From Candidatus Poribacteria bacterium (GTDB lineage Bacteria > Poribacteria > WGA-4E > UBA9662): a DNA stretch of 49,436 bases. The stretch lies in the NCBI GenBank assembly GCA_036339735.1, contig JAYZAL010000070.1:1-49436 (forward strand), given 5' to 3'. The position numbers and the translations under genes were made by a program. This document shows, piece by piece, positions 5,948 through 42,647 of the stretch. The notes under the pieces were generated by a model that saw only the letters and a program-made list of their open reading frames with translations, did no database searches and had not been told where the DNA came from. Numbering within the stretch: the first letter of the stretch is position 1; each line of letters begins with the position of its first letter.

Positions 5948-7396
5948 CTAAAATAATATTTTTTTCATATCTTGTGAAGGAACACCATCAAAAATTAAGC
6001 GTCCTTCTTTTAAGCATAGTACACGGTCAGCATACTGTGTAGCCAAACCGATGCTATGTGTTGAAAACAAAAAAGATGGGGCTTCATCTGGACGATGGCT
6101 ATCAATGAATTGATTAACTTGAGTTAGCGTTTTTTGCAGATTGTTGAAATCTTGACCTGTGGTCGGCTCATCCAAGATTAAGAGTTGAGGTTGGCTAGAC
6201 AAGCTTGCCGCAATCGCCACACGCTGACGTTGTCCTTGAGATAATGCAAAGGGATTCTCTTCAGATAAATGCCCCAAATCGAAATTAGTTAAGATTTGAT
6301 CAATGGTATTGTTCGATCGAGCAGATTTTTGCTTAGTATGCTCATAGCCAAAAGCAATTTCCTGTCGAACTGTTTGTGCTTGCAGAATCAAATCAGAATT
6401 TTGAAAAACAATACCAATTTGGCCAATCGCATCTTTAAGCCTCCTTATAGAATAGCCATTTAAGGAAATATAACTCTTTTTGTCCGTCAGTGGTAACATT
6501 CCACATAAACAGTGCAGTAAGGTTGTTTTTCCTGATCCATTCCGACCCATTAAGGCTACTTTTTCACCTTTTCCAATTTCAAAGGAGATTTGAGATAAAA
6601 CTTCTTTATCCGGATTTCGATAGCCAAAATTCAGATTGAAGACAGACACAGCGGATTGCCTATTTTTAATTATTATTTTATCTTTTTTTGGCTTTGTTGA
6701 TGATAATGTATGAGTAAGTGGTAGGCTCTCGTTTTCCACAACGGTCCGATTTGTTACTTGCCAAAATCGGTTGGCAAGTTGTTCTACTTCCTCTATCTTG
6801 TGTGTTACCAACACAATAGTTAAGCTGGATAAATTGAACTTGAGTTCCTTTAAGGAAGTTAAAACTTGTTGGCTAGCCAAAGGGTCGAGATAACTGGTCG
6901 GTTCGTCTAACAACAAAACCTGGGGTTGTAGAGCAAGTAGGCTTGCTAGTGCTACCCTCTGTTTCTCTCCACCAGAAAGTGTACTGGTATCGCGGTACCG
7001 AATCTGTGTTTCCGAGGTGAAACCAACCAAAGATAGAGCATGATCAATTCTTTGGTTAATTTGGAGCGCTGGGACACCAAAGTTTTCGAGACCGAAAGCA
7101 ACTTCATCTTCTACTGTAGTACAGAACACCTGATCGTCAGGGTTTTGTAATAACGAAGCGACCTTAGGCCCTACTGATGTCTTATTTCCAATTTCTATCT
7201 GGCCATTAGTGGTTCCACTGTCTATATTAAGTCCACCCATGGAACGAAGAAAAGTTGATTTCCCACTACCTGTGGGACCTGTTAGTAAAATAAAATCGCC
7301 ATCATAAGCTGATAATCGAACGTTTTCTAGTGTCGATTGATGACGACCGTGGTAAGTGAAAGAATAATTAGAAATTGCGATCGTTTGCAGATTCAC
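5948..7396 (-). CDS. ECF-type transporter ATPase with two fused ABC domains (CbiO/EcfA-A' type)
   Basis: Two Walker A motifs (GPTGSGKS, GRNGSGKT), QNPDDQ, LSGGEKQR / LSQGQRQR, two DEPT motifs. Confidence 0.88.
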   Translation of the reverse strand: MNLQTIAISNYSFTYHGRHQSTLENVRLSAYDGDFILLTGPTGSGKSTFLRSMGGLNIDSGTTNGQIEIGNKTSVGPKVASLLQNPDDQVFCTTVEDEVAFGLENFGVPALQINQRIDHALSLVGFTSETQIRYRDTSTLSGGEKQRVALASLLALQPQVLLLDEPTSYLDPLASQQVLTSLKELKFNLSSLTIVLVTHKIEEVEQLANRFWQVTNRTVVENESLPLTHTLSSTKPKKDKIIIKNRQSAVSVFNLNFGYRNPDKEVLSQISFEIGKGEKVALMGRNGSGKTTLLHCLCGMLPLTDKKSYISLNGYSIRRLKDAIGQIGIVFQNSDLILQAQTVRQEIAFGYEHTKQKSARSNNTIDQILTNFDLGHLSEENPFALSQGQRQRVAIAASLSSQPQLLILDEPTTGQDFNNLQKTLTQVNQFIDSHRPDEAPSFLFSTHSIGLATQYADRVLCLKEGRLIFDGVPSQDMKKILF

Positions 7397-14603: not shown

Positions 14604-14688
14604 GTTGGCCTTCAATATTTAAAATGCTAAGCAAATGGAAAAGGTAATTTGCTTAGCATTTTTAATCAAATTCATTGAAGTCGAGATT

Positions 14689-15573
14689 ATGATTACAAGA
14701 ATGAGTCAGGTATTTGTATCTTTATTAGTATTTTCAATTGATACTCAATGCGGGAACTTGCCAGCTATCCTCCATGAAAATGAACTAAAAGTAAGCCAGG
14801 GTAAAAAATTGGGAAAAAGATCAATCTGAAATGATTTTGATTCCAAGTGGCTCGTTTGACATGGTTGATTACTTTAATGATGGTGGAAAGGATCGAGTAA
14901 CTGTCGGTTAGTTTTATCAGTTTGTCGAGTAAAGTGGATATGACTATCCAATTGATTACTGGAATTTAGTGTTTGAGATATTACCGGGAGACAGTTACCC
15001 AACGGCGTATGTAAACTGGAATGACGCTACGACTTATGCTGAATGGGCCGGGAAGCGATTGCCAACCGAAGTTGAATGGAGGTACCCTGCTCGAGGTGGA
15101 TTGATAGGCCGTTATCCATGGAGAAATGAAATATACCGACGGTGCAAGAGTATAACTTTGATGATAAGAATGCAAACTCAATTTTGAGGGTACTTCACTA
15201 AGAATTTGATTGAACTGATGTAGAATTGGATGATGGATATGGTACTGCTACCCCAGTAGGAAGTTTTTAACCGAATGTTTTTGGATTACAGGATATGGCT
15301 GGTAACGTACGGAAATGATATACGGACTATAATCGAGAAAATTATTATAATATTTTACCAGTCAAGAATCCAAAAGGGCCAGATAACGGTTCAAGAAAAG
15401 TATTCCGCAGTAAGTCTCAGTATGATACTGCAACCACGCTACATGTAGCAACTCGCCTTATCGAAAATTCTCCAACGGATAGGAAAGGTGAGTTAAGCTT
15501 TACCAGTGGTCTTGGGTTTAGATTTGTATCAAATGAAGAACAACTTACTTACTCAAACCCGAACCAAAGATAA
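14689..15573 (+). pseudogene. FGE-sulfatase (formylglycine-generating-enzyme/SUMF1 domain) pseudogene
   Basis: MILIPSGSFDM...VTVG*FYQFVE*...VNWNDATTYAEWAGKRLPTEVEWRYPARGG...YPW / PVGSF*PNVFGLQDMAGNVRK*...NPKGP...GFRFV. Stops at 14909, 14930, 15268 and 15316, plus frameshifts. Confidence 0.88.
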
Positions 15574-15597
15574 ATCGTGTATCTAACCCGTTTTTAG

Positions 15598-16310
15598 AAA
15601 AACCAAGTTCACAACTCATTTTCCGTACACTATTGAACGGAAGTAGCTCAGTTGATAATTGGTTGCGAAGCCTATGAACACACTATCTAAGTGCTACCAC
15701 AATCATGCCAACACAGGAAATACGACCTTATTCTCATTTCTACCACCCATATTATAATTTCTCACCGAAATAAATCTTTGATAGCACCTGATAAGACTCA
15801 TTTCATACGACGGTTTTGAAAAATATTTGAAAAGATAAGTCTCAAAACGTACATTCTTGGTATCTTCAATTTCTCCTTGAAGTGTATCTCATAATATGAA
15901 GCGCCTAGCTCACCAGTAGCTAGGCGCTCATCACCCCCTTTGACCATTTCTTAACCATAAACTAATCAAGCGACATTCTTTTTTTGCAACTAGATCCAGA
16001 TTGAAAAGGTATAAAATCAGCGTTGCATATTTTACTCCTTGTCTATGCAACCGGCATAACCTATTCTTATATCATGCATGCCGGGCTGGGTAGCTGTAGC
16101 ACTCATCACCTACCCAGCTTTCACATTTTATAAAAGAGTGCCTAGCCCACAACTAGGCACTTTCAATGCTTATTCTGACAAAATTAAATTATATCTCTAG
16201 TTTATTTAATTGGCTCAATTAGCCCCTCTAGCAGATCCATTAGTTCCCTGAAGCAATACTATGGTATACATACCCACTTGATAATTAGCCGGTTACAAGT
16301 AAGGGTAAAC
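15598..16310. ncRNA. Candidate large structured non-coding RNA (strand unresolved)
   Basis: No ORF >=60 aa. Eight hairpins (15601-15664, 15864-15882, 15901-15927, 16022-16051, 16051-16084, 16085-16118, 16137-16161, 16271-16307), four of them nested inside five long-range stems. Confidence 0.55.
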
Positions 16311-16595
16311 AAAGTTTAGTTTGCTGTATATATGGACTGATGGATATACTTCGCAATTACGGATCTTAGAACAAAAAAATCCATCTCACAGGGATCTGAT
16401 CATATCTATCGACGCCCGCGATATTCTACTACCTCGAGGCTGAATCTTATCTGACCAAGGAAGTCTCTTGTTTTGATGTTCAGTCGTAGAATGGGGCATT
16501 ATGTGCAATCTGGGGATAATAGTGAATTTTAACTTACTGGTAAAGTCAGTATGGCCGGCTCCTTTGAGTATTGACCACGAAAATCTTGGAGCGTA

Positions 16596-16994
16596 TTGTG
16601 GAACACCTCCTCATACAACTATCTATGTCCATCATCGTTGTGTTTGAAGCGCGAGCTTTATCATCTGAAAATACTCCGGGTATCCCTATCGCTTCGAGGG
16701 TCGATTATATTACTGGGGGATGCGATTTCTAGTGAGGAATACGCAGTAGGGAAATTCCAGTTTTTCTTTGAACAAGCGACCGGTTTTTTACTGCCAATTT
16801 TCAGCGAGACTCGAAAAGAAAATGACTGCTGTATCTTTGTAGGTATAGGCGACGCTATGAAAAGATCGCAGCTAAGATTCGACACAACTGATTTCGGTAC
16901 TGAAAACCTTCGTGTGGTTGTTGGTGAATCAGTGATTATGATTGCAGATGGTCGCACGTCTGTTGGAGAAATACTTCGCGCCGGAATGAACTGA
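16596..16994 (+). pseudogene. Possible degraded gene fragment; C-terminus weakly resembles the GspE/PilB ATPase C-terminus
   Basis: Ends IADGRTSVGEILRA, similar to the VxxGxTSxEEVLR tail. Upstream frames are interrupted. Weak evidence. Confidence 0.2.
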
Positions 16995-17180
16995 GATTGA
17001 TCTTGATAATATAATAAATTGGTGGAAAGCTTGCGTTTCTTACTAATGACGACACCATATAATTCGATTTTTATCACAGTTCCAGATGTTAAAAAGTTTG
17101 AAAAACAACAGGTTAAATTTAATTGGTATGATAATCATAATTATCAAATCAAAATTCTAATTTTTTAGGAGACCCAAGCC

Positions 17181-17980
17181 CTGAATTATATATTTATTCT
17201 TTTTTTACTTCCCTGATAATTGGTTGTGCTATTAATGGAGAAGAAGTTAATACAATTATCAAGGAACAGATTGAAACTCAACCATTATCCGAATTTAACA
17301 CTAGTATATTGAGATGGCAAACCAATAAGTTGAGTCACTACCAATTTGATTTTAGGTGGATTTGCTTTTGTCCGCCTGATTATATTTCGCCTGTTACTAT
17401 CACGGTGGAAGATAGTGTAATCAGCCATGTCATGTATAGTGAAACACAAATTCAGGTTCAGGAAGATAAACTGAGTCGCTATAAAACAATTGATGATTTG
17501 TTCAGTTTCGTCCAAGATGCCTACAGCCAAAATGCTCATCAGATTTCCATAGACTACGATCCCCACCTTGGGTACCCAATTAGGGGGTCGGTGGATTACG
17601 TAAAAATGATAGCAGACGAAGAAAAAGGCTTCGAGATTAAGAATTTCATGGAGTTGAAATCTAACGAAGATGGGGCTTCGCTAATAAAAAGATTACCGAT
17701 AAATGAGATGTCATTACAAATTAAAGAGAATTTCCCACCTTTGATTAATATTAGAGTAGAGGGGTACTTGCCCGATAGCCGTACATCGTTTCATCGGGTT
17801 AGGCAGCAGCGAGAAGGTAATTTGGTAGTTGTTGAACTAACCACAAGACGTCCTAGAAATGAGTTTTGTGCTGAAGTGATTACAGAAATATCAAAAAGCA
17901 TTCAGCTGAAAGGTAATTTTGCCATAGGCCAAGATTATACATTGATTATTAATGATAAAGAAACGAATTTTAGTCTTTAG
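17181..17980 (+). CDS. DUF6174-like lipoprotein with a second beta-rich domain; 5' end frameshifted in a T7 tract
   Basis: RWQTNKLSHYQFDFRWICFCP...TIDDLF...YDPHLGYP...IADEE. The main frame is open upstream of 17309 through SLIIGCA (lipobox), but the RBS (aggaga 17167) plus CTG 17181 is out of frame. Confidence 0.65.
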
Positions 17981-18370
17981 TTGAAGTTCATCTCGTTTAT
18001 CAGTCTCGAATGTTTTGATAGAAACGGGACTGAGTAGTTATTACTAGGTTCAACGACGAAGATAGTAGTATCGGAAGTGTTTAAGCTTAAAAATACTAAT
18101 GTTCAGGTGTAGTCTATTGTAGTTGATGATAGCTGGAGCCAATTGTAATCGTAGAATATTGACGATTATGGGAAGTTTATATTATCTGAATATGCAGTCA
18201 TTGAGTTTGATACCAAAATAAAAAGAATCAGATTGGAAACAATATTTCATCTTCAATTTTGAATTCTGAGAGTAAATATGAAGAGCCAGAAAAGCTACCA
18301 AATTTCCATCCATAATATATAACAAAACCGATTTACCCAATCGGCTCTACACCTCTCATAAGAGTGATAA

Positions 18371-18937
18371 ATGTACTTTTGGACTTTACATACCCTTCTT
18401 AACAATGTCTGGGATGAAGAAACGATTCTGATAAGGATAAACCGTTTCGAGAAACAGTGTGCCCCGGTGGTTTCGGCTGATCCTTGGTGTGCGACGGCCA
18501 GGAATTGGGAAGATGATCCGGCAGATTTTGCTACGGTTCTCAATCGGCTGCGTCATTTTGTAGAGTCTCGGCGGTCTAAGATCCAAGATATCGTAAACGA
18601 TTATGCAAATGAAGAAAATCTTTTAGCCACGAATCAAAAACAGGATAAATTCAGTAAATCTACTGCGAATTACAAAAAAATCGTATTGATGAAATAGGAG
18701 GAAAAAGCAGTATTCAGCAAGAAATTGAAGGTTGGATCAACTGTTTTCGTATCGCTTCTGAGCAAAAAATAGATAAAGCTATTCAATTCCGAAAGTTACA
18801 GATTCTATCCTCAGAAATTAAAGAAGGAAAGTTGAATCGAGCAGAGGAATTAAAATTAAATTTGGTAACTGAAAGAGATAAAAAAATATTCAGCGAAATA
18901 ACTAGTATCATTCACATCTGTTTCTTTTCTTTTTAGT
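18371..18937 (+). pseudogene. Frameshifted gene remnant; first part resembles a CotH-kinase C-terminal helical region
   Basis: YFWTLHTLLNNVWDEETILIRINRFEKQCAPVVSADP...FATVLNRLRHFVESRR resembles CotH C-termini. Coding-like sequence continues in another frame (QKNRIDEIGG...FFSF*). Confidence 0.35.
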
Positions 18938-19109: not shown

Positions 19110-20825
19110 TCATCGTTTATACTCACTACGGTCAGTATTACCACCATATTTCATTGCGTAGACTAACAAGTTCGTCATAAATCGATGAACATCTGGTGAG
19201 CGACGGTCTTGCAAACGAGCACGACTATCGACTTCTGACGTCTCCATACAACAGAGATAATCCTTCCGGTTAAAAACGACAGCTAGTCGGTTCCCAATAA
19301 AAATACCTTTTTGAAATTTGAACTGTGTTGGCTTCGGCTTGTAACCACTGTTCCAAAAAACATCCCCACCCGTGGGTGGCTCAGCCAGCTGGTAGTAAAC
19401 TTTGTATAGCTTATGGTCGTGTGGGATATTGGCTAATTGAAATTCAGGAAGTACCGACTGCAATTCTCTTCGAAAACGGGATGCAAAATTTCCATTGAAG
19501 CCACAGTCGTCGAAGAATAAAAGTCCACCACGGTTGATAAGGTATTTTCGCATAGCAATTCTTTCTTTGCGTGAAAACCCTTCGGCTAAGGGACCATCTT
19601 TTGCCAGACTCCGATTCAGAACGATATCTCTGTCGTGTCCAGTCATGAAAATGAATGGAGCATCTAAAATCCGTTCGTCTGTCATACTCAAAGAACCACC
19701 TTCGAAATCGACATCAGCTGTGATTTTCGTGTTATCTTGTAGCCATTTAATAAAACTGGGAACTGCAGTTGGATCCTGCCACCAATCTGATAACGAATGT
19801 TTGAGTCGAACTAATTTGATATGAGCAGAAAATTCGTTACCACTACCAACAATCTTAGCACCCAGCTTATCTTTCGGAATAATCACTAATTCTCTCATGC
19901 TAAAGTTAGAAACTTGACCTGAGTCTTTAGCTCCAGTTGAATTCAACATTGAAGCAATGCCTAGGGATTCAGCACGACCTTGGCTTTGCGCCCTCAATCT
20001 GTTAGATAGCAAACCGGCCCCATCCAATGGAGTATTACTAGTCGTATCAGTTGGAGATTGAACCCGGCTTGGACTTATTGTCATCGGAATCCGAGTTTGG
20101 GTTGTTATATCCGTAGGTTTTTGGTCCACTAGTTTTGGGTTCAGATCAACATTCTGTTGTATATCGACAGGGCGTCGTTGAACAGTTTCAGCTACACTAG
20201 TTGGTGACGTTACTAGGATTTTAGGTTGATTGGTCATCCGTAGAGAAGGATCTGGTGTTATCCGTCGCTGAATGCGATCGACTACCGGTTTTTTGATCAT
20301 TCGACGTGTAGCTGTCTCAGGAATAGAGACAAAATCCACGGAAATTTTATCTTCTTCAATGATATGATTTCGCAAATTAAAGGCGATATAAATTGCCAAT
20401 AGCAAATGGATTAAAAGTGAGATTATTACTGACGGTGATGCTCGAAATACTCTGTGTAATAAGGATACACCAATGGAATCAGAATCAATTATCGTTTCAA
20501 TTTCTATCGTTTGCTTTCCACAGTTTACAGTTATGATGCCAGCTTGGGCTCGAGTGATAGTAATCTCTTCCCCTAAACTTTCCCTTAGGAACATACCAAG
20601 TTGTTCTAGCGAACAGGTTACTTTCCCAGGCTGAATCACCTGTGTAGAAATTTGATCAGATGAAAATAGTAGGTCTCTACTTCTAGCTGACAGTTGAGCC
20701 GTTTGTCCACTAGTCGTTTCGATAGTTATATGTGTTAAACTATTCAAAGCTTTTCGTCTAACAGCCAAGGTCTGTACTGATTTTACTGCTTCTAGAAGAT
20801 TTTGGTGTTTAATTTTGATTTTCAT
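19110..20825 (-). CDS. Membrane protein: DnaN domain-I-like N-terminus + TonB-type TM helix + Pro/Thr-rich linker + DUF4159 domain
   Basis: aa 1-117 follow the beta-clamp N-terminal pattern. TM at aa 131-149 has SLLIH (SxxxH). C-terminus has DWWQDPTA, PFIFMTGH, RKYLINRGGLLFFDDCG, IPHDHKLY. Confidence 0.8.
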   Translation of the reverse strand: MKIKIKHQNLLEAVKSVQTLAVRRKALNSLTHITIETTSGQTAQLSARSRDLLFSSDQISTQVIQPGKVTCSLEQLGMFLRESLGEEITITRAQAGIITVNCGKQTIEIETIIDSDSIGVSLLHRVFRASPSVIISLLIHLLLAIYIAFNLRNHIIEEDKISVDFVSIPETATRRMIKKPVVDRIQRRITPDPSLRMTNQPKILVTSPTSVAETVQRRPVDIQQNVDLNPKLVDQKPTDITTQTRIPMTISPSRVQSPTDTTSNTPLDGAGLLSNRLRAQSQGRAESLGIASMLNSTGAKDSGQVSNFSMRELVIIPKDKLGAKIVGSGNEFSAHIKLVRLKHSLSDWWQDPTAVPSFIKWLQDNTKITADVDFEGGSLSMTDERILDAPFIFMTGHDRDIVLNRSLAKDGPLAEGFSRKERIAMRKYLINRGGLLFFDDCGFNGNFASRFRRELQSVLPEFQLANIPHDHKLYKVYYQLAEPPTGGDVFWNSGYKPKPTQFKFQKGIFIGNRLAVVFNRKDYLCCMETSEVDSRARLQDRRSPDVHRFMTNLLVYAMKYGGNTDRSEYKR

Positions 20826-21405: not shown

Positions 21406-23979
21406 CTAATTTGTTTCATCATTTTTGCTAATTTTTTCTGTGCTGTCCACTCTTGGCTCACGGTCTAAAAGATGGCGTACGAAAAAATCTCGCTGACGTC
21501 GGGTACCATAAGCACTTCCTGCAGCTCCATGCCCTACACCTGGAATAATCAATAAATCAAAATCCTTATCGGCTTGGATAAGAGCATTGACCACTTGCAT
21601 TGTACTCGCAGGATCAACGTTTCGGTCTAATTCCCCCACGATTAGTAATAGTTTTCCAGTTAATTTTTTAGCGTGAGTAACATTACTATTATCAGCATAT
21701 TGGGAACCAATTGGCCAACCCATCCAAGCTTCGTTCCACCAAATTTTGTCCATTCGGTTATCGTGACAGCCACAATCAGCCACACCGACATGATAAAAAT
21801 CACCGTAATGCAACATGCCACTAAGCGTGTTCTGCCCACCGGCAGACCCTCCGTAAATCCCAACGCGTGTTAGATCAATTTCTGGGTATTCTGATGCAGC
21901 CGATTTAATCCAGGCAATTCGGTCTGGAAAACCAGAATCTTTCAAATTTTGCCAACAGTAATTGTGAAAATGTTTAGATCGCCAATTGGTTCCCATACCA
22001 TCAATTTGTACCACGATAAATCCAAGTTCTGCCATTTCCTGTTGGTGGTAATGAACTTGAAACTTTTTCGCGACAAAAGCATCGTGTGGCCCAGCGTAAA
22101 TATGTTCAACAACGGGATACCTTTTCTGTTTATCGAAGTTAGTTGGTCGCCACAAGAGACCATAAATGTTAGTTTTTCCATCTCTGCCTAAGCTGGAAAA
22201 ACGCTGAGGAACAGACCATCCCAAATTTCTCAATCTTGTCCAATCAGATTTTTCCAAATCTAAAACCAAATTACCATTTTCTGAACATCTCAATTGATGA
22301 ATAAAGGGTTGGTCAACGCGTGACCAGCTATCCACAAAGAAGCGTCGGTCTAGGGACCATTGTACTTGGTGCGTACCATCATCCTTAGTTAACCAGACTA
22401 GATTTTCTCCACTTAAATCGATACGGCCATAATGGACATAGTAAGGGTCTGAAGTCGTGGGTAGATCTTTGTCTTGAGTGAATGCGTCTCCACTAGCTTG
22501 GAACCAGATTTGGCGTGTATTTTTATCTACATGTTCTACTTGTCTCACTGCCCACTTACCTTTGGTAATTTGGTGTTTGAGCCGGCGATTAGTAACATCG
22601 TAGAGATATAAGTGATTCCATCCACTACGTTCGCTCATCCAAATCAATTCATTATCATTTAACCAATTCAGATACATTTTTTGAGAATAATCAATAAAGC
22701 TTGGACTGTGTTCATTGAAAACAGTATCTGTCTGGCCAGTATCTGAATCTACTGCAATTAACCGTAAAACTTGATGGCCCCGCTGATTATACAAAAAGTA
22801 ACAAGTCGTACTATCTTGATGCCAACGGACATGACTCAATGACCAGGGGTTAGGAAACAGTCTTGATTCAATTTGTAACTGTTTCCCTGTTTCTATATTA
22901 AAAACACACGGGTGAGGTTTGGCGATTTTGTCTCCAGGTTTAAGGTATTGAAAGGAATGAAGCTTGGGCTGAATTTGGTCGCTGGGAGATGATTCAATTA
23001 AATGTACTAAGTGTTCTTGCGCTTGTTGTACCTTGAAAGAGATCAATTTTTGACTGTTTGGTGACCAGTGGATTTGAGTTTGATCATATGGCTCTACTTT
23101 ATTACCGTCCTGACTCAGTTGTTGTATTTGTCCGTGGTCTTTCCACAACCAGAGATTATGTTCCTTAATAAAGGCTAATTTCGTACCATCTGGTGAAAAA
23201 ACCCCATCAGATGGAATATCTCTTTTTGTGATCTTTTCGCTCTGTCTTTTCTCATGTAGTCTTTCTTCCTGAATTGCCACTAAGGGTTCTTGCAAGCTAG
23301 CTTCGTAGACCCCAAACTTTTGACCTATTTCATCCATTATTAGCCAAATGTGCCCAGTATAAGTATGTTGCTGATGAATTTCTCCAATTTCTAAGGTCGA
23401 ATAAAGTTTTTGATCGCCTTGTCCATTTAACCAAAACAGCTGGATTGGTCGATTAGTTTCATTACGAAAAGTAACGGAAATTTCAACTCCTGTTTGATAA
23501 CTTGGCCGGATTGTTGATCCTAGTTTCATTTGAGAGATGTCCACTATACTGGCTATTCGTAAATTGTCAGTTTTGGTGTCAAATTCCCAAGGCTTACCTT
23601 GGAAATTAAAACGCCAAATATCTGGCTGATCAGTAAAAACTAAATTGGTAATGGATAAACGATCGGGGTCAACAGATTGGCCAGTAGCATTCGTTAGTTT
23701 GGTTGCAAGTTTATTATGATTGAAGGCTAATCCTTTGCTTCGTGTTTGGATAGATACCTTTACGAACTGATATCGATCACTTGCCAGTTGTTTCAAATAC
23801 CAAAAATGTTGATTGTCGATTGACCAGTTGGGTGTGATTTCTAGCTGAAAAATTTGATTTCTGAACTGTTCTTTTAGGTTGTTAGCTCTCTTGTAATCAC
23901 TTGAAGAGCCTTGCCCCCAAAGCTGTGTTGTCATTGACAATAAGGCAAACAAGGTTATACTAAGCACAGAATTCTCCAC
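21406..23979 (-). CDS. S9 family dipeptidyl-peptidase IV-like serine peptidase with VHL-beta-like insert
   Basis: Signal peptide; DPPIV propeller (WMSERSGWNHLYLYD); YAGP, GIYGGSAGG nucleophile, ELDRNVD, GVGHG. Confidence 0.92.
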   Translation of the reverse strand: MENSVLSITLFALLSMTTQLWGQGSSSDYKRANNLKEQFRNQIFQLEITPNWSIDNQHFWYLKQLASDRYQFVKVSIQTRSKGLAFNHNKLATKLTNATGQSVDPDRLSITNLVFTDQPDIWRFNFQGKPWEFDTKTDNLRIASIVDISQMKLGSTIRPSYQTGVEISVTFRNETNRPIQLFWLNGQGDQKLYSTLEIGEIHQQHTYTGHIWLIMDEIGQKFGVYEASLQEPLVAIQEERLHEKRQSEKITKRDIPSDGVFSPDGTKLAFIKEHNLWLWKDHGQIQQLSQDGNKVEPYDQTQIHWSPNSQKLISFKVQQAQEHLVHLIESSPSDQIQPKLHSFQYLKPGDKIAKPHPCVFNIETGKQLQIESRLFPNPWSLSHVRWHQDSTTCYFLYNQRGHQVLRLIAVDSDTGQTDTVFNEHSPSFIDYSQKMYLNWLNDNELIWMSERSGWNHLYLYDVTNRRLKHQITKGKWAVRQVEHVDKNTRQIWFQASGDAFTQDKDLPTTSDPYYVHYGRIDLSGENLVWLTKDDGTHQVQWSLDRRFFVDSWSRVDQPFIHQLRCSENGNLVLDLEKSDWTRLRNLGWSVPQRFSSLGRDGKTNIYGLLWRPTNFDKQKRYPVVEHIYAGPHDAFVAKKFQVHYHQQEMAELGFIVVQIDGMGTNWRSKHFHNYCWQNLKDSGFPDRIAWIKSAASEYPEIDLTRVGIYGGSAGGQNTLSGMLHYGDFYHVGVADCGCHDNRMDKIWWNEAWMGWPIGSQYADNSNVTHAKKLTGKLLLIVGELDRNVDPASTMQVVNALIQADKDFDLLIIPGVGHGAAGSAYGTRRQRDFFVRHLLDREPRVDSTEKISKNDETN

Positions 23980-35765: not shown

Positions 35766-38700
35766 TTAAAACCGTTTTTCGATTTTTAGGTCGACACCAA
35801 ATTTCCCTTCGTCCCGCTCACCTTTGATGGCAAAATTCTTTCCTAACTCGTACTCAATCTCAATACGAGGTTCGGAATGCAGTTGAAATGTCGAAGAATA
35901 AGTCAAGGCTAATCGATTTGAAATTTCCTTGGTAAGAAGGAAACGAGATGATTCAAATTCGTTTGGATTGAGATCAAAGCGTGTTTGCCTAAAACCCATT
36001 AGTTGAGCAAGCCGTCCACTAAAGTAGCGCTGGCTCTGCTGTAGGACAAAGCTCGATACCATCGGTGAAAGTTGATCTTGTGTTCTGATTAGTGTGTCAG
36101 TGCTGCCGAAAGTTGCTGTTTGTAAGGTTGAAGGATCAATCATACCTAGTGTCAGAATGGAAAGAATTTGTTTCTGCTCGAGCCGATATTCTTCGCCGAC
36201 TTCTTTCTCCAATACTTCTGCTGATAAAACTGGGTTGTGTTTTTCATTCAGGTACCCATTCAGGTTCGCTCGGATCACTAGGTCTCGATTACGAATTTGA
36301 CCGTCAACTGTAATCAAATCGACGTTCCGAATCGGTTGAGTCGTTTCGCTTAGAATCGTGTATTTGGGATTAAAAACAAATTGGCTACTATTATTTTCGA
36401 TGTAAGATCCGGGTAAAATTTTGAACGGTTGATCAACAGCAAACAAGGAAAATTCACCTTGTAATAGGTCAACACGACCATTAAGAATTGGTTGCCAAAC
36501 AGGACCTGTTAATTGACCATTAATAGCAGTCTCAATTTCAATATCACCGAATTCTGATATAATTTTGACATTTTCGGGAGCGGAAAGCTCGAGATTTAAC
36601 TTTAAATGTTGCCAGAAAGGAAACTCTGAGATGAATTGACGTAATGCTAAATCACTAGAAGTATCAGACCAAATCGAGACTAAATCCTCCCAGCGTTGAG
36701 CATATTGGCCTTCGCTAAAACTTAAATTACCTTTTAAATTTCCGGTCAATGGCTTCCAAGTAAATGGCGATTGGCTACTGGAGGTAGTTTGTCCTTCCAG
36801 TATTAAATCGGCCTGATTTAAGCGAATAAAATACAAGTTCGGTTCTTCAAATACACACCCTTCGGCAAGTTGAAATTCTAAGTGTAAGTCGGTGATAATT
36901 TGGTCTGCTACTGATGACCACTGAGATTTGACCCAGCCTCCTAATTTGTAAGTGCCATCATTGATTTGTCCTTGACACTGACGAATAGCAATTCCTTTAT
37001 CAGTAAACGCTAAATCAATATCTGTTTGCTTGATATTAACGCGTTGATCCGGCAGGTTGACTTGTACTTGTTCAAATTTTGCCATTCCTTTCAATTCAGG
37101 GTCTGATACATATCCTCCAAGTGTGAGATTCAAATAACCTATACCGTTTGCATAACCGAATTGTGGAAACAATAATGGCAAGATCCCTAGGTCCTTAGTT
37201 TGTAAGTCAAACCTACCATTGATTGGTCGCTGGCCAGTCAGTTCACTTTCCCCTATTTCCAAATCAAAAAGCAGTTGATTTTTGTCTATCTTAATTCGAA
37301 TTGGTTGGTCAGGTTTACCAACAAATAGACGTTTTTTATCAAAAATTACTTCGCCACCGAAGATATCCACTTCAGATTGGTTAATTCGAATTGGTGTTTT
37401 CGTTTGACTATAGTTAACTTTAAAATATGGATTTTTCAGTGTGCCTCCTAGGTAGAAATCAGTGTTCAATCGACCACTAATCGACAAACCTGAGGGTATT
37501 TTGGAGTCTAAACCAAGTAACTGAACTAATGTTTGCAAATTAATATTAGAAATGAGAACATTAAGGTCAAATTGATCCGATATATGCCAATTTCCCGAGC
37601 CTGTAATTGTTAGTTCATCTGAATCTATTTCATTTTCCATTTTCAGAAGGCGACTTTCACTGACTAAAGTAAACGGATCTATTGTCAACTGTTGTTGTTT
37701 TAAATCGAATCTTAAGGGGCGAACATTAACAAGATTTTTAGTCCAACGACCGTGGGTTGTGTCATCGTCGTGTATTAGCTTATCATTTTCTCTTTCGGTA
37801 CCTAGATTTTCCATTTGACGAATTTGTAACTCAAGTTTTTTAATTGTCAAATCAACAATTGGGTCCTTCACCTTAGCATCTATTTTTTGTTCCATTAAAG
37901 GTATAATACAACTAAAATTACCCGTTAATTGGCCCGCGACCAGCTCAAGAAATCGTTCATTTACTACGTTATTTGATTGGTTAACGTAATTGTACCAAGC
38001 TGAAGATAGAGTGATGATATCTGAAACTTCAGCTTCTTTAAATTGAAAGTCTTCCACTATCAAATTCTTGAATTTCAATCTATCGAGTTCAATTTTTGTT
38101 CTTGTGTTATAATGGCTATCAAGGAGACTAAATCTAAAGTTCGACGATAACAAACCGACTGGTCCTGCGCTAACTAATGTTTCAATTTTGGAAAAAGGCA
38201 AACCGAGAAAATTCATATTTCCATCTGTCAATTCAAAGTTCCCGCGCAGATGGGGATTTGCAGGTGTACCTCCTAAATGAAAATCAACTTTCATTTGTCC
38301 AGATACCTCGTTAGGCCAAATTGAGTTAACCCAATCAAGATTTTTTAACTCGGTTATCTCTTTCGCAAATTGAGAAATTTCTCCCACGTCTATAAATTCT
38401 CCACTAAGTCTAAAATTCATCGGTTGATTTGGAACTGCCCACTTTTCTTTACCGTAACTGGGTAAAAAAGAGATATTAGCAGGAAAATAACCTGAAAGTT
38501 TTAGGGATTCATCATTAGATTTACCATCCTCAAACTTCACCTCAGCTTTGAATAAATCATCTTGATAAGCCAATTGACCACTTAACTTAGCGGGGAAAAA
38601 ATCTATTTCCCAAACTGAATCAATATTGGGTTTCTCTAACGACTGTGTCACGACCATTTGGCCACTCAACAGATGTTCTTTCCTTTTCTGCCGTTTATCA

Positions 38701-41700
38701 AAATTCAGTTCCAAATTCGACATCAAGGGAGATATTAAACTATATGCAGCAGACAAGGGAATTTGGTAAAACTCAACCACAAGTGGTTTAGGCTCGATAA
38801 GATTACTGGTTGATTGTTTTAGGGCCAATTGGCCATGGGCTTTTAGAACCGTTTCATTGTCGTTAACAGCTTGGGTTGAAAAAGAAAAATTATCAATCTC
38901 TAAGAGATTATTACGGTAAAAAAGGTGGATTGGCTGTCGTACGTAAAAGGGTGTATATCCTACGTTTAATGATAGCGTAGAACAGGAGATAACTGCAGAA
39001 TTCAGAACTAGACCTTCACCTTCAAATTGGCTAGTAAAATGTATAAGTCCATTGGCTGATTTATCGGAAGCCTTTGCTAAATATTGCTTAAGGTAAGGCT
39101 GAAGTTCTACTTCAACCCCATTCATATTTAATTTCCATTTCTCTAATTGGACCGTTCTTTTCGAGTAATTAGCAATCAAACGTGTTTCACCATTAGCTTC
39201 ATACAATTCACTAACTTTCGAACCGCTGGATTTCCATTCGGCATTAGTTAAACGAATATCAATATTACTAACCGCATCCAAATTATTAGTGGGAGATTTC
39301 AGTGAAGGTAACTTACTGCTAGCCTTTAGGTGAGCTGTTAGATTATTGATTGGTATTGGTAATACACTAGACTCAAGGTTTACTTGGTGAAGACCAACTG
39401 AGCCTATAAAATTGGGATAATCTAAACTTCCACTGACTTCTGCCGAAATGTCTACTAGACCAGTTAAATGATGATCTACTGGCCAGAATGATGACAAGTT
39501 TAGATTAGCCAAATCAAAATCATTACACTGCAAAGAAATTTTGTTTTGACTTTTAGGGAACTCAATTGCTTCAGAAGAAAACACAATTTCTGGTAAGGAT
39601 TGATTAAGCGAAAATTGTCCCCACAAATTGACCAAGTTCTCATTAATGAAAAGGTTGGTTTGGCTTAATGTCACTCTTTCATCGTCAACTTTCAAAAACC
39701 CAACACTACCGTCTAATCGAAGGTTAAGCGTCTTGTTCTTCTCAACGTCTTTCTGTATTGAGAGGGAAAGTTTGGGGGTTACCCATTCAACAGTTAAATT
39801 ATCCAAAGAATTATTGGCCAATAGACGGTACCTTATTTGACCTGCTGCTACCGATGGAAGATCAAAGAATTTTGTAAAGTAGGATGCCGACATCTGGCCA
39901 TTGGCAAATTCATGGATTGATATATCCGTACTTACCGGATCTGCTGCTTTAGGTCGTATCTGTTTATTTTTGACTAAAAAAGTCGTTTCAGTCTCTTTGC
40001 TTCCTTGCAAAAAGAGTCGTTCGATGTTCCACCCTTTGTCATCTTGACTTTGTATTGGACCATACTGAATTCGTACCGCTCCTTGATTTGTCAGTTGTTT
40101 TAACGATTTTGCGTCCTCAAGGTTTGTGTTATTTAGTAGATCAGAAGAAAAATTAGGAATTAACGACAAACTACTGAGTTCCATATCCAACTCGACTGTA
40201 GATAAATTTTCGAGTTGACCATTTAACATCATTTCGCCTTCAGCTGTTCCTTGAAAATACCGGCCAATATATGGGTTAATAATTTTCAGAATGGGGCTAA
40301 TGGCCATCTGTTTACCACGCAGTAATAGTTGGTAAGGTGTACCAACTGCCGCTTGTATTGTTCCCAGTAGACGACAGCTTTTATCAAACCCAATCCCTTC
40401 TAAATCAAGCCGATTATCTGAATAAACTCCAGTAATTGTTGCATCCGGTAGCCCGATTTTATTAGAATCCAGATGATAGTGTACGCTTTTTAAGTCAGCT
40501 TGAAGATCAAGGTGCGGATAATTAGCATTTCCTTCGCCCACCGCGGTGACTACCAACTGGGAATCGAGTGGGAATTCAGGAATATTCTTTGCATAAGCCA
40601 CTTGTTGAAGACTGATCGGATCAGTTTTAAAACTGAGTCTATAATTTAGCTGGGGGTCAATTTCAAATTTCATTACCCCTCTTTGCTTCCGAGCAAATAG
40701 TTCAAAATTTTCTATTTTAACTAAATAGTCATCAATTACCATTGGAAGAGTTAGCGGATCGAATTCTAGCCCCCAAGCTTTTGCATCCGAAATTTTGAAA
40801 TTACCACGCCCATCCAAAGACGTCAGATTACCGTTCAGGTAAAGATGCCCTTTAGCCAAACCTTCTACTGGATAATCCGCACCAACTAATCGAATATAGT
40901 CTTCAATATAAAAGGGATCGGTCTTAAGAATAAGATCTACAGGTACATTCCCAGATGTTTTAGCGGTTCCAATAATTGTCAAAACACTTTGGTTCTTGAC
41001 GAGTGTAAGTGGTTGGATAGTGACGATACCAGATTCGTAATTAAAGTCAGTTGTTAAAATACCTATTGGTACTTTAAATAATTGAGCCTTTGGTACCTGT
41101 AATCTTCCGTTGATTTTTTGACCAATAACCTGTCCGTTTAATTTTCCAGTTCCACTTAGGTCAGGTATATCAAGAATTTGAGATAACTTTCCCATCTGAA
41201 TTTTCTGAATTGAGAGATCAAGGATCCTTTCCTCGGTCAGTCCCGCTGCACCAGCAATTATAATATTGGCTTCATCCAAATTTGCTCTAGCTTGTAGTTG
41301 GTCTTTGCGGATGGTCCAGTTGAGTTCCGACGTGCTGATTGGAATCTTGTTTAGCTGACCATTGGTGTATATGAGTTGACCATCAATTTTACATTCATCC
41401 AAGTCAAGACTATTACCGCTAAATTCCACCTTGGTATTTACCTGTCCCGTCGCAAGAACTATACGAGTTAGATCGTAAATCGGAGGGAAAAACTCCTCAG
41501 CTTTTGCATTCAGTAATTCTATTTCTCCTTTATAGCTTATATCTGACTCGGGATATGCTTTTTTTATTTCTGCGTGTCCATTTAGCACCCCTCCAGCCAT
41601 TTTGCCTGAAATCTCACGTAACAGTAATTGTTTTTCCGAAAAACGGGCGTAAGTAGTAAACTCTTCTACTGTTAATTCATTAAGCTTGGCGAACGGCAAG

Positions 41701-42647
41701 TGAATCCCCAATTGTCCGGTAATACCCTTTACTGAACCACGTGTCTCCAGGCGAACTTCGGCTACACCCTCTATTTCATTGGAATGTTTCGGGAAAAAAT
41801 GGATCAGGTCCTGAAAATCTAGATCAACATCGATTTTTGCTTGGAAGGTAGTAGACGTTTTATCTAGACTAGACTTTGGAACATTAGCTTGTCCAGAAAT
41901 AGCTATTCTAGAATTACCCAAGACTAATTGTAGCTTTCGAAGTTGACCTGCAGATTGGCTAAGATCGAATTGGGTTTCAATCTTGTCGATTTTTGCTGCC
42001 ACCCCATTAATAACAACTTGACCGTCTTGAACAACTAAATTTCCTTGGTGGTCCCAGCGATCCAGTGGACCTTTCACAGATAACTGGATACCAGTTACAC
42101 CGAATTGAAGATTCCGTTGTGGGTCTATGATTTTAACACTACCATGTTCTACCTTAACATCAGCAACTTTAGAACGGCTGGCCAAGGCCGCGGTAACAAA
42201 ACGTTGTGCCTGCGATCCATCTGAAGGTTCTATGACTCGAATTTGAGGTAAAATCATACGACCATCCGGTGCTATGGTCAGGTGTATTTTAGGATCCACA
42301 ACCTTAAGTTCTTTAATCAGAAAACGACCAAGCAAAAAACCCCAGAGATGATACTTCAGTTGAATCTCGTGCGTGGCAAGTACATCACCTTTTTCTTGTA
42401 CATTGTTTTTGATTACAATATTTTGAACGCTCAAATCAGTTAGCATGTTACCGGTGACACGACCAATCTCAATTGGATGGTCGAGTCGTTTTTGCAATTG
42501 ACTTTCTAGAGCAAAACGGACTTTTTCTCTCAAAAAACCAGACTTCAAGAACCAAATTCCCGTGATTATACCCAAAAATGGTAGAAGCCCAAGCAAGAAT
42601 AGAATAATTTTACTTTTTTTGAATCTATGATTCGATTTGCTTTCCAT
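35766..42647 (-). CDS. tamB: Translocation/assembly module TamB (AsmA-like, DUF490), 2293 aa
   Basis: N-terminal membrane anchor, long beta-taco repeats (G.L..P.L.G), amphipathic C-terminal strands ending GVDLKIEKRF; directly upstream of the Omp85 gene. Confidence 0.85.
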   Translation of the reverse strand: MESKSNHRFKKSKIILFLLGLLPFLGIITGIWFLKSGFLREKVRFALESQLQKRLDHPIEIGRVTGNMLTDLSVQNIVIKNNVQEKGDVLATHEIQLKYHLWGFLLGRFLIKELKVVDPKIHLTIAPDGRMILPQIRVIEPSDGSQAQRFVTAALASRSKVADVKVEHGSVKIIDPQRNLQFGVTGIQLSVKGPLDRWDHQGNLVVQDGQVVINGVAAKIDKIETQFDLSQSAGQLRKLQLVLGNSRIAISGQANVPKSSLDKTSTTFQAKIDVDLDFQDLIHFFPKHSNEIEGVAEVRLETRGSVKGITGQLGIHLPFAKLNELTVEEFTTYARFSEKQLLLREISGKMAGGVLNGHAEIKKAYPESDISYKGEIELLNAKAEEFFPPIYDLTRIVLATGQVNTKVEFSGNSLDLDECKIDGQLIYTNGQLNKIPISTSELNWTIRKDQLQARANLDEANIIIAGAAGLTEERILDLSIQKIQMGKLSQILDIPDLSGTGKLNGQVIGQKINGRLQVPKAQLFKVPIGILTTDFNYESGIVTIQPLTLVKNQSVLTIIGTAKTSGNVPVDLILKTDPFYIEDYIRLVGADYPVEGLAKGHLYLNGNLTSLDGRGNFKISDAKAWGLEFDPLTLPMVIDDYLVKIENFELFARKQRGVMKFEIDPQLNYRLSFKTDPISLQQVAYAKNIPEFPLDSQLVVTAVGEGNANYPHLDLQADLKSVHYHLDSNKIGLPDATITGVYSDNRLDLEGIGFDKSCRLLGTIQAAVGTPYQLLLRGKQMAISPILKIINPYIGRYFQGTAEGEMMLNGQLENLSTVELDMELSSLSLIPNFSSDLLNNTNLEDAKSLKQLTNQGAVRIQYGPIQSQDDKGWNIERLFLQGSKETETTFLVKNKQIRPKAADPVSTDISIHEFANGQMSASYFTKFFDLPSVAAGQIRYRLLANNSLDNLTVEWVTPKLSLSIQKDVEKNKTLNLRLDGSVGFLKVDDERVTLSQTNLFINENLVNLWGQFSLNQSLPEIVFSSEAIEFPKSQNKISLQCNDFDLANLNLSSFWPVDHHLTGLVDISAEVSGSLDYPNFIGSVGLHQVNLESSVLPIPINNLTAHLKASSKLPSLKSPTNNLDAVSNIDIRLTNAEWKSSGSKVSELYEANGETRLIANYSKRTVQLEKWKLNMNGVEVELQPYLKQYLAKASDKSANGLIHFTSQFEGEGLVLNSAVISCSTLSLNVGYTPFYVRQPIHLFYRNNLLEIDNFSFSTQAVNDNETVLKAHGQLALKQSTSNLIEPKPLVVEFYQIPLSAAYSLISPLMSNLELNFDKRQKRKEHLLSGQMVVTQSLEKPNIDSVWEIDFFPAKLSGQLAYQDDLFKAEVKFEDGKSNDESLKLSGYFPANISFLPSYGKEKWAVPNQPMNFRLSGEFIDVGEISQFAKEITELKNLDWVNSIWPNEVSGQMKVDFHLGGTPANPHLRGNFELTDGNMNFLGLPFSKIETLVSAGPVGLLSSNFRFSLLDSHYNTRTKIELDRLKFKNLIVEDFQFKEAEVSDIITLSSAWYNYVNQSNNVVNERFLELVAGQLTGNFSCIIPLMEQKIDAKVKDPIVDLTIKKLELQIRQMENLGTERENDKLIHDDDTTHGRWTKNLVNVRPLRFDLKQQQLTIDPFTLVSESRLLKMENEIDSDELTITGSGNWHISDQFDLNVLISNINLQTLVQLLGLDSKIPSGLSISGRLNTDFYLGGTLKNPYFKVNYSQTKTPIRINQSEVDIFGGEVIFDKKRLFVGKPDQPIRIKIDKNQLLFDLEIGESELTGQRPINGRFDLQTKDLGILPLLFPQFGYANGIGYLNLTLGGYVSDPELKGMAKFEQVQVNLPDQRVNIKQTDIDLAFTDKGIAIRQCQGQINDGTYKLGGWVKSQWSSVADQIITDLHLEFQLAEGCVFEEPNLYFIRLNQADLILEGQTTSSSQSPFTWKPLTGNLKGNLSFSEGQYAQRWEDLVSIWSDTSSDLALRQFISEFPFWQHLKLNLELSAPENVKIISEFGDIEIETAINGQLTGPVWQPILNGRVDLLQGEFSLFAVDQPFKILPGSYIENNSSQFVFNPKYTILSETTQPIRNVDLITVDGQIRNRDLVIRANLNGYLNEKHNPVLSAEVLEKEVGEEYRLEQKQILSILTLGMIDPSTLQTATFGSTDTLIRTQDQLSPMVSSFVLQQSQRYFSGRLAQLMGFRQTRFDLNPNEFESSRFLLTKEISNRLALTYSSTFQLHSEPRIEIEYELGKNFAIKGERDEGKFGVDLKIEKRF

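Follow-up and report, generated by a model that had tools for sequence, protein, structure and literature searches.

Positions 15598-16310 of contig JAYZAL010000070.1 (GenBank assembly GCA_036339735.1, Candidatus Poribacteria bacterium) raise the question of what a stretch rich in hairpins and lacking any long open reading frame (ORF) can encode. All positions given here refer to the window, that is, the whole 49,436-nt stretch of DNA that was analyzed, with + denoting its forward strand. An earlier note, drawn up before any database had been searched, had proposed a single multidomain RNA of about 700 nt in which a four-way junction lies inside nested long-range helices. We arrive at a different answer: the interval is read here as two small-RNA (sRNA) genes, sRNA-1 and sRNA-2, standing in tandem on the + strand within decaying noncoding DNA, and not as one large RNA. 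The family to which sRNA-2 belongs is predicted to consist of sibling sRNAs that block Shine-Dalgarno (SD) sites independently of Hfq, and for the two-gene reading and this function taken jointly we estimate a probability of roughly 0.68. The sRNA-2 family and a related second family are real, conserved, and previously undescribed; they are restricted to one genus of marine Poribacteria among the genomes searched, and their presumed mechanism is of a known kind.

One Large RNA or Two Small Ones

The elements on which the single-RNA proposal was built are present. Every pair of complementary segments was located where it had been reported (Table 1), and the arms nest in the correct order. The longest ORF within the interval does not exceed 49 aa, and Rfam 15 gave no match at gathering score across the whole window, in keeping with the claim that no described RNA class is represented; with E values of up to 10 allowed, only five matches appeared in 15300-16700 (E 2.7-8.7, 15-21 bits versus cut-offs of 36-60). 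Folding of the entire 713 nt was likewise stronger than that of shuffled sequence, with z scores of -4.41 on + (20 shuffles) and -1.62 on -. Divided into parts and compared with 200 shuffles each, the interval displayed a strong signal at 16022-16170 (z -5.73 on +, -3.65 on -) and at 15850-15935 (z -5.45 on +, -4.49 on -), next to values of -0.77 for 15598-15747 and +0.09 for 15700-15849 on +, and of -0.39 on + and +1.56 on - for 16171-16320. Because the z scores of the flanks are close to zero, the flanks are indistinguishable from shuffled sequence, and the folding signal is local, residing in two short stretches.

The interval was aligned with its orthologs at five loci (four on metagenome contigs and a single one in a same-genus genome), which are all close to each other and make this effectively a two-species comparison; the alignment separated the local from the long-range helices. 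The six local hairpins were paired in 99.3% of 282 cells. The five enclosing helices were paired in 74.4% of 164 cells and displayed no compensatory change. The 3' arm of aactaga/tctagtt falls in a segment deleted in all five relatives, and actaat/attagt and accata/tatggt each have three to four of their six pairs broken in five of the six sequences. When the AT-rich flanks were dinucleotide-shuffled 1000 times, 11.9% of the shuffles gave at least as long a nested chain of perfect helices between them (five, each of 6 bp or more). Since the outer helices are not conserved and the chain occurs at chance level, the four-way junction and the enclosing multidomain architecture are unsupported, while the hairpins themselves are real beyond chance. 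The segment tataaaat, previously taken for one arm of the closing stem, is instead a -10-like element found just ahead of hairpin 1 in every paralog of sRNA-2, and the core of the interval recurs elsewhere in the genome without these flanks. Despite the correctly nested arms and the z score of the interval as a whole, one RNA of about 700 nt can hardly be credited. What stands of the earlier note is a conserved, structured, noncoding RNA-like sequence beside a decayed gene. More generally, what looks like a large structured RNA can turn out to be a series of small units, and the survival of the long-range helices in orthologs discriminates between the two.

A Multicopy Family Within One Genus

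A BLAST search of the stretch against its own genome (G000) revealed that the part at about 15937-16121 recurs on contigs C44, C21 (twice), and C19 with identities among paralogs of 71-78%, and a motif scan added a third copy on C21 (C21c). Two of the resulting six paralogs stand in tandem on C21. The same-genus genomes G002 and G001 also carry the family according to BLAST. A covariance model, R1, retrieved six copies in G000, seven in G002, and one in G001, with no copy in four other genomes of the same taxonomic family or, under stricter filters, in any of a sample of 150 further genomes of the phylum. The copy in the window matched the model at 16019-16126 with 87.5 bits, the sole plus-strand match there. 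Orthologous pairs are kept between two species, namely C70 (the contig of the window)/G002-C63, C44/G002-C70, C21a,b/G002-C87, C19/G002-C39, and C21c/G002-C86. The paralogs have unrelated neighbors (enolase-superfamily, 3-keto-disaccharide hydrolase-like, DUF6785, Laminin_G_3, CMD, HEAT repeats, hydrolase, PhyH, and HTH_17), and their neighborhoods share no common partner gene.

A pattern scan of species-representative genomes yielded 91 stretches, of which three were true members, all on contigs of Candidatus Poribacteria metagenome-assembled genomes; the other 88, single matches each in unrelated taxa, were taken as chance without being inspected. The corresponding scan of metagenomes gave 22 loci, comprising 13 true members that were near-identical to known copies and nine gene starts on the opposite strand.

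Within an alignment of 13 copies, five of the 17 consensus pairs displayed compensatory changes. The set was then enlarged to the 26 matches of the model, metagenome copies included, from which one antisense row of a known copy was dropped to leave 25 rows and 22 distinct sequences. Across these 22 copies, 365 of 373 cells were paired (97.9%), and compensatory changes were found at six of the 17 pairs. The copies contain 41 G-U cells, which would become A-C mismatches on the opposite strand and lower the pairing to 86.9%; this asymmetry identifies + as the functional strand, a point that had been left undecided earlier. The covariation tool's own count on all 26 rows, with the antisense row included and the alignment fitted to the model, exceeded 500 of 500 shuffles on every measure. 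The family thus has several paralogous copies with a secondary structure backed by covariation, one of the features expected of trans-acting sibling sRNAs. Identity to the orthologs is 89-95% over 15950-16149, compared with 69% just upstream of the unit, 39-56% over 16150-16249, 60-88% in the decayed gene and the spacer, and about 95% in the intact GH5 gene upstream.

Anatomy of sRNA-2

Read side by side, the copies have a common layout that consists of an upstream box, ATTGAAAAGG-TATAAAAT, hairpin 1, and a second hairpin and/or a terminator (coordinates in Table 1). In the copies, the box reads TTGACnATTTCTTAACCATAAA..., hairpin 1 takes the form GUUGCAUA-loop-UAUGCAAC, and the second hairpin reads CUGGGUAG...CUACCCAG; several copies add a CU-rich single strand and a hairpin AAAAGUGCCUAG...CUAGGCACUUUUU. 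Among the 22 distinct copies, hairpin 1 displays compensatory U-A to C-G and G-C to A-U changes together with eight G-U cells, and hairpin 2 has compensatory changes at four of nine pairs and many G-U cells. The middle hairpin is invariant in six of six orthologs, is kept in a shorter-loop form in the G001 copy, and is absent from the other paralogs. In type B and C19-type copies (the types refer to the loop of hairpin 1), a T run comes immediately after hairpin 2, and a stem-loop with a U run is clear in the paralogs C44, C21a, C21b, C21c, and C19. The third hairpin (16137-16161) displays one C-G to U-G change that is valid on + in the ortholog alignment, and A and T runs flank both of its sides in paralogs.

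A genome-wide fuzzy search for the upstream box returned 12 matches, of which five lie upstream of family copies and one follows the terminator of the C44 unit. The box is a putative binding site of a regulator and would be expected to mark a regulon. A sigma-54 promoter was considered and discarded, as the GG/GC spacing counted on the sequence does not fit.

Table 1. Features of the locus, loop types of the sRNA-2 family, and complementary arms on which the single-RNA proposal rested
Feature	Position	Strand	Remark
sigma-70-like promoter of sRNA-1, TTGAAA-17 nt-TACATT	15827-15855	+	promoter scan
sRNA-1 hairpin, 6 bp, loop UUUCUCC	15864-15882	+	invariant in 6/6 sequences
sRNA-1 terminator-type hairpin (GCGCCUAGC/GCUAGGCGC)	15901-15927	+	ortholog alignment
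upstream box (TTGACCATTTCTTAACCATAAACTAATCAA)	15940-15969	+	48-49 nt before the -10-like element, counted by eye, copies checked
ATTGAAAAGG + TATAAAAT, -10-like promoter element of sRNA-2	16000-16017	+	lies 5-6 nt ahead of hairpin 1 in each copy read
sRNA-2 gene body	16022-16165	+	~103 nt if ending after hairpin 2, ~144 nt if after the third hairpin
hairpin 1, 8-bp stem GUUGCAUA/UAUGCAAC	16022-16051	+	14-nt loop with ACUCCUU (16034-16040)
middle hairpin CGGCAU/AUGCCG	16052-16083	+	specific to the ortholog group of the window
hairpin 2 (GCUGGGUAG/CUACCCAGC), then UUUCACAUUUUAU	16085-16118	+	putative short-form terminator
third hairpin (AGUGCCUAG/CUAGGCACU)	16137-16161		shared terminator module; better U tail on - here
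loop type A (window, C44, C21a): ACUCCUU			
loop, C19 type: CUCCUUU			
loop type B, C21c: UGGAUCACCU			10/10 match to 16S tail, both species
loop type B, C21b: CGGAUUACCU			
arms of hairpin 1	16022-16029/16044-16051		present as claimed
CCGGCAT/ATGCCGG arms	16051-16057/16078-16084		present as claimed
arms of hairpin 2	16085-16093/16110-16118		present as claimed
arms of the third local hairpin	16137-16145/16153-16161		present as claimed
outer arms	16010/16125, 16000/16161, 15988/16196, 15961/16239, 15954/16260		present as claimed

All family copies lie in unusually long ORF-poor stretches of 1.8-3.5 kb; those of G000 are C44:28751-31562, C21:28194-31733, C21:21707-23495, and C19:1-2009. Such stretches may be islands with further small RNA units, as exemplified by the box-like sequence behind the C44 terminator. 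Downstream of the two tandem sRNAs, at a distance of about 190 nt, a 94-aa ORF (G000 C21:30246-30530, -) displays a weak match to HTH_17 (E 3.8e-5, below cut-off) and is a candidate for the regulator that binds the box.

The Upstream Unit and Its Relatives

The interval 15827-15927 on + is a second, shorter small unit that belongs to a related family. Both hexamers of the sRNA-1 promoter are invariant in five orthologs and align with TTGAA(A/C)-17-TA(A/C)AAT of paralogous units on C49 of G000 and C23 of G002. The paralogs of its first hairpin share CUCCUUGA(A/G)G. In the hairpin at 15901-15927, one compensatory pair is accompanied by three pairs in which a change on one side gives a G-U pair valid on +. 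The GUGCCUAG..CUAGGCAC module terminates other units, where a T run follows it; the terminator of sRNA-1 has no U tail in the window and in the orthologs.

This second small-unit family, termed type C, has members in G000 on C49 (~6790-6870) and C21 (~22640-22710) and in G002 on C23 (L013:300-435), with a doubtful further member on C47 of G000 (~108930-109000). The type C layout comprises TTGAA(A/C)-17-TA(A/C)AAT, a CUCC-loop hairpin ending UUGA(A/G)G, UAACUCCUA, and a GUGCCUAG terminator.

Loops That Repeat the 16S Tail

The 16S rRNA gene is absent from the assembly of the window, and the 3' tail was taken from a same-genus genome, in which the 16S 3' end reads ...CUGGAUCACCUCCUUU. The type A loop repeats the CUCCUU of this tail, which is the anti-SD sequence, and the ACUCCUU loop of the copy in the window is unpaired in both the minimum-free-energy and the centroid folds. 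The C44 and C21a copies carry extra CU-rich runs: loop 2 contains CUCCUCU or UCCCCUC, and CUCCCUUAAGG precedes the terminator. Complementary sites are in use: AGGAG stands upstream of 9.6% of 2530 long ORFs compared with 0.7% at a control position, and AAGGAG upstream of 3.8% compared with 0.2%. The family therefore displays an exposed CU-rich motif complementary to SD sites in use, as is expected of SD-blocking sRNAs, and a search of the 92%-complete genome detected no gene for Hfq or CsrA.

According to the mechanism proposed here, the exposed CU-rich loop would base-pair with target mRNAs at ribosome-binding sites of the AAGGAG type, and this pairing would block the initiation of translation without requiring Hfq. 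The several copies may integrate different inputs or raise the dosage. LhrC1-5, RsaE, and RNAIII act in this manner. Targets were sought as 13-14-nt complements of the four loop types, with at most three mismatches, upstream of a start codon and an ORF. The search was crude, using neither accessibility nor gene calls, and the sRNA genes themselves were set aside.

The two registers in which the loops copy the 16S tail, CUCCUU(U) and UGGAUCACCU, also admit a different function for the family. Its members could be 16S-tail mimics that compete with the 30S subunit for SD sites in a graded, global manner, or that serve as decoys for some nuclease or other factor by which the 16S 3' end is recognized, a reading that we regard as unlikely. 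If it were true, an uncultivated marine phylum would have a dedicated RNA system that tunes SD-dependent translation globally and not at single targets. Equally doubtful is the rival in which the loops imitate the tail as a decoy or sponge, either titrating a tail-recognizing protein or nuclease or soaking up SD-rich mRNAs globally. Consistent with it are the two loop types that correspond to two tail registers, the conservation in two species of a type B loop identical to the tail at ten of ten positions, and a target search that gave no specific target. Nevertheless, each RNA carries a single such loop, CU-rich loops are ordinary in SD-blocking sRNAs (PMC4132741), and no partner protein was identified, CsrA being among the proteins not found in the 92%-complete genome. 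A sponge of the CsrA/RsmA kind was rejected separately, given one GGA that occurs in type B loops only and the lack of a CsrA match in that genome.

Evidence from RNA Libraries

Of the words sampled from 15800-16400, a share of at least 0.78 was present in each of 14 DNA runs labeled marine or seawater metagenome, among which may be the source of the window; the shares present in six RNA runs were small. Contigs of four RNA runs were placed on 15000-17000, where the stretches that received none (15000-15938 and 16541-17000) are no evidence of silence; RNA run X17 contributed no contig. Two contigs from two different studies, both representing a relative's allele at a depth of 2-5, cover sRNA-2: one of 175 nt over 15950-16124 and one of 168 nt, with diverged ends, over 15939-16070. 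They agree with the transcription of sRNA-2 and, in the contig that ends at 16124, with a 3' end just after hairpin 2.

A further set of RNA contigs, from two libraries, represents the window's own allele (at least 99% identity) and covers 16169-16354, 16361-16516, and 16197-16362 at depths of up to 10.4. Promoter-like sites on - are found at 16544-16516 and 16526-16498, and the lone terminator-like call is the - reading of the hairpin at 16161-16137; the segment 16169-16516 may thus give rise to a - strand transcript of about 350 nt that is convergent with the sRNA. Eleven small ORFs of 20-48 aa, none of them compelling, lie within 16130-16560.

Points Against SD-Blocking Tandem sRNAs

Several observations weigh against tandem sRNA genes whose products block SD sites, and they concern promoter, terminator, transcripts, targets, and depth of the comparison. 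The promoter scan found no canonical -35 element ahead of the TATAAAAT element. At the other end of the gene, the U tail of the hairpin at 16137-16161 is poor on + (UUUCAAU), and the scan calls a terminator there only on -; in the window copy, hairpin 2 is followed only by UUUCACAUUUUAU and hairpin 3 by UUUCAAU, and no + terminator was called. The two RNA contigs over sRNA-2 are of low depth (2-5) and strandless, their ends are unreliable, and carry-over of DNA is possible. Both also reach 70-80 nt upstream of hairpin 1, into the presumed promoter and the box. The start of sRNA-2 may accordingly lie further upstream, or transcription begun at sRNA-1 may continue into it, the sRNA-1 terminator having no U tail; such read-through would explain contigs over the presumed promoter. 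As for function, the target search described above returned no convincing target, and for type B loops the AGGUG/GGUGA sites are barely enriched at starts (2.0-2.2% compared with 1.1-1.5%). Finally, the independent depth of the alignment is small: three closely related species supply all the copies, of which the 13 metagenome loci are near-identical versions.

DNA Repeats, the Opposite Strand, and Attenuation

Tandem sRNA genes have also to be weighed against readings in which the + strand RNA is not the functional product. The units could be DNA-level repeats, either palindromic elements resembling repetitive extragenic palindromes (REP) or miniature inverted-repeat transposable elements (MITE), or palindromic operators bound by a regulator. 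They are multicopy and palindromic and lie in ORF-poor stretches of 1.8-3.5 kb, their conserved box resembles a protein site, and the ends of the RNA are unproven. Yet the 41 G-U cells are asymmetric between the strands and compensatory changes maintain the stems, features accompanied by T runs after the hairpins on one strand. Furthermore, the copies are 71-78% identical and not near-identical, the paralogs occupy orthologous positions in two species, and neither terminal inverted repeats nor target duplications were seen in flanks that were read by eye without a systematic search. Taken together, these findings render DNA-level repeats distinctly improbable.

Read backwards, hairpin 1 presents a perfect AAGGAG-N7-ATG, which could open a very short ORF or a leader peptide and would make - the functional strand. 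The nine gene starts among the 22 metagenome matches to the loop pattern point in this direction, as does the z score of -3.65 for 16022-16170 on -. The resulting ORFs, however, have 3, 8, 13, and 15 codons, and their lengths and the sequence downstream of the start vary between copies (the peptides themselves were not compared); in type B copies, no spacer separates the SD-like run from the ATG. Function on - would in addition turn the G-U cells into A-C mismatches and leave the T runs following the stems on the other strand, and we consider it very unlikely. Control of a downstream gene in cis, by a leader or an attenuator, can be dismissed as extremely improbable, for although attenuators do consist of a hairpin and then a terminator, the downstream neighbors differ from copy to copy (3-keto-disaccharide hydrolase-like, HTH_17, or none), the tandem units are followed by more noncoding DNA, and the nearest downstream ORFs in the window are short and without family.

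Surroundings of the Locus

The decayed gene beside the sRNA genes is an FGE-sulfatase (SUMF1-like) gene at 14635-15570, of which the fragment 14969-15184 matches PF03781 with an E value of 9e-17. On a related contig, the ORFs of the orthologous stretch measure just 62-98 aa; identity between the species is about 75% there. As the relative also lacks a long ORF, the remnant is an old, shared pseudogene.

Downstream of sRNA-2, the hairpin at 16271-16307 (ACCCACUUG...CAAGUAAGGGU) is kept in orthologs, where by-eye inspection found changes that give G-U pairs on +. Identity over 16250-16299 is 82% between poorly conserved flanks, and a 150-nt segment around the hairpin has a z score of about 0. 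Some 2 kb at 16553-18552 are missing from all five related loci, in which 16551 is joined directly to about 18557; this segment carries a DUF6174 gene (17309-17980) and ORFs without family. Farther along the window, a 571-aa ORF on - (19110-20825) combines DUF4159 with a weak resemblance, below threshold, to the beta clamp of DNA polymerase III in its N-terminal domain, and a 2293-aa ORF occupies 35766-42647 on -, with ORFs of 954 and 1012 aa nearby.

Comparison with Known Systems

Because the phylum is uncultivated, gene regulation in Poribacteria is known only by inference. The locus offers a concrete, testable sRNA family in the form of six paralogs, the covariance model R1, and alignments A1 and A4. 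Among the papers listed in literature searches, at the level of titles and the openings of abstracts, none concerned an sRNA from Poribacteria, and among those listed for sRNAs that mimic the anti-SD sequence none was equivalent.

The large ncRNAs OLE, GOLLD, HEARO, ROOL, and raiA are defined by conserved, covarying long-range helices. The likeness of the present locus to them is a first impression only, created by many hairpins in the absence of ORFs; its long-range helices fail, and it has no Rfam match. A resemblance in motif is found in Yfr1 of marine cyanobacteria, a short sRNA with a conserved ACUCCU-containing element that is flanked by two stem-loops and single-stranded between them. 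The difference is that the motif lies between hairpins in Yfr1 and inside a loop here, where no Rfam match was obtained.

Among the C-rich SD-blocking sRNAs of Firmicutes, a class named in PMC4132741 that includes RsaE/RoxS and RNAIII, the shared feature is an exposed C/U-rich loop complementary to ribosome-binding sites. These RNAs differ from the present family in being single-copy and in having other folds, and no homology was detected with Rfam. The same paper describes the closest known system, LhrC1-5 of Listeria monocytogenes, five homologous copies of about 100 nt each, some of them in tandem, whose redundant CU-rich sites occupy the loop of the 5' hairpin (loop A), the terminator loop, and a single-stranded segment; LhrC blocks the SD site of lapB, for which Hfq is not needed (PMC4132741). 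There is no similarity to LhrC in sequence or model (Rfam), and the phylum is another one. The motif here is CUCCUU, an exact copy of the 16S tail (with UGGAUCACCU as a subtype), whereas that of LhrC is UCCC, and LhrC depends on LisRK. The likeness is thus one of working principle only, and it comprises six copies, two of them in tandem on C21, with CUCCUU displayed in loop 1 and no Hfq gene found.

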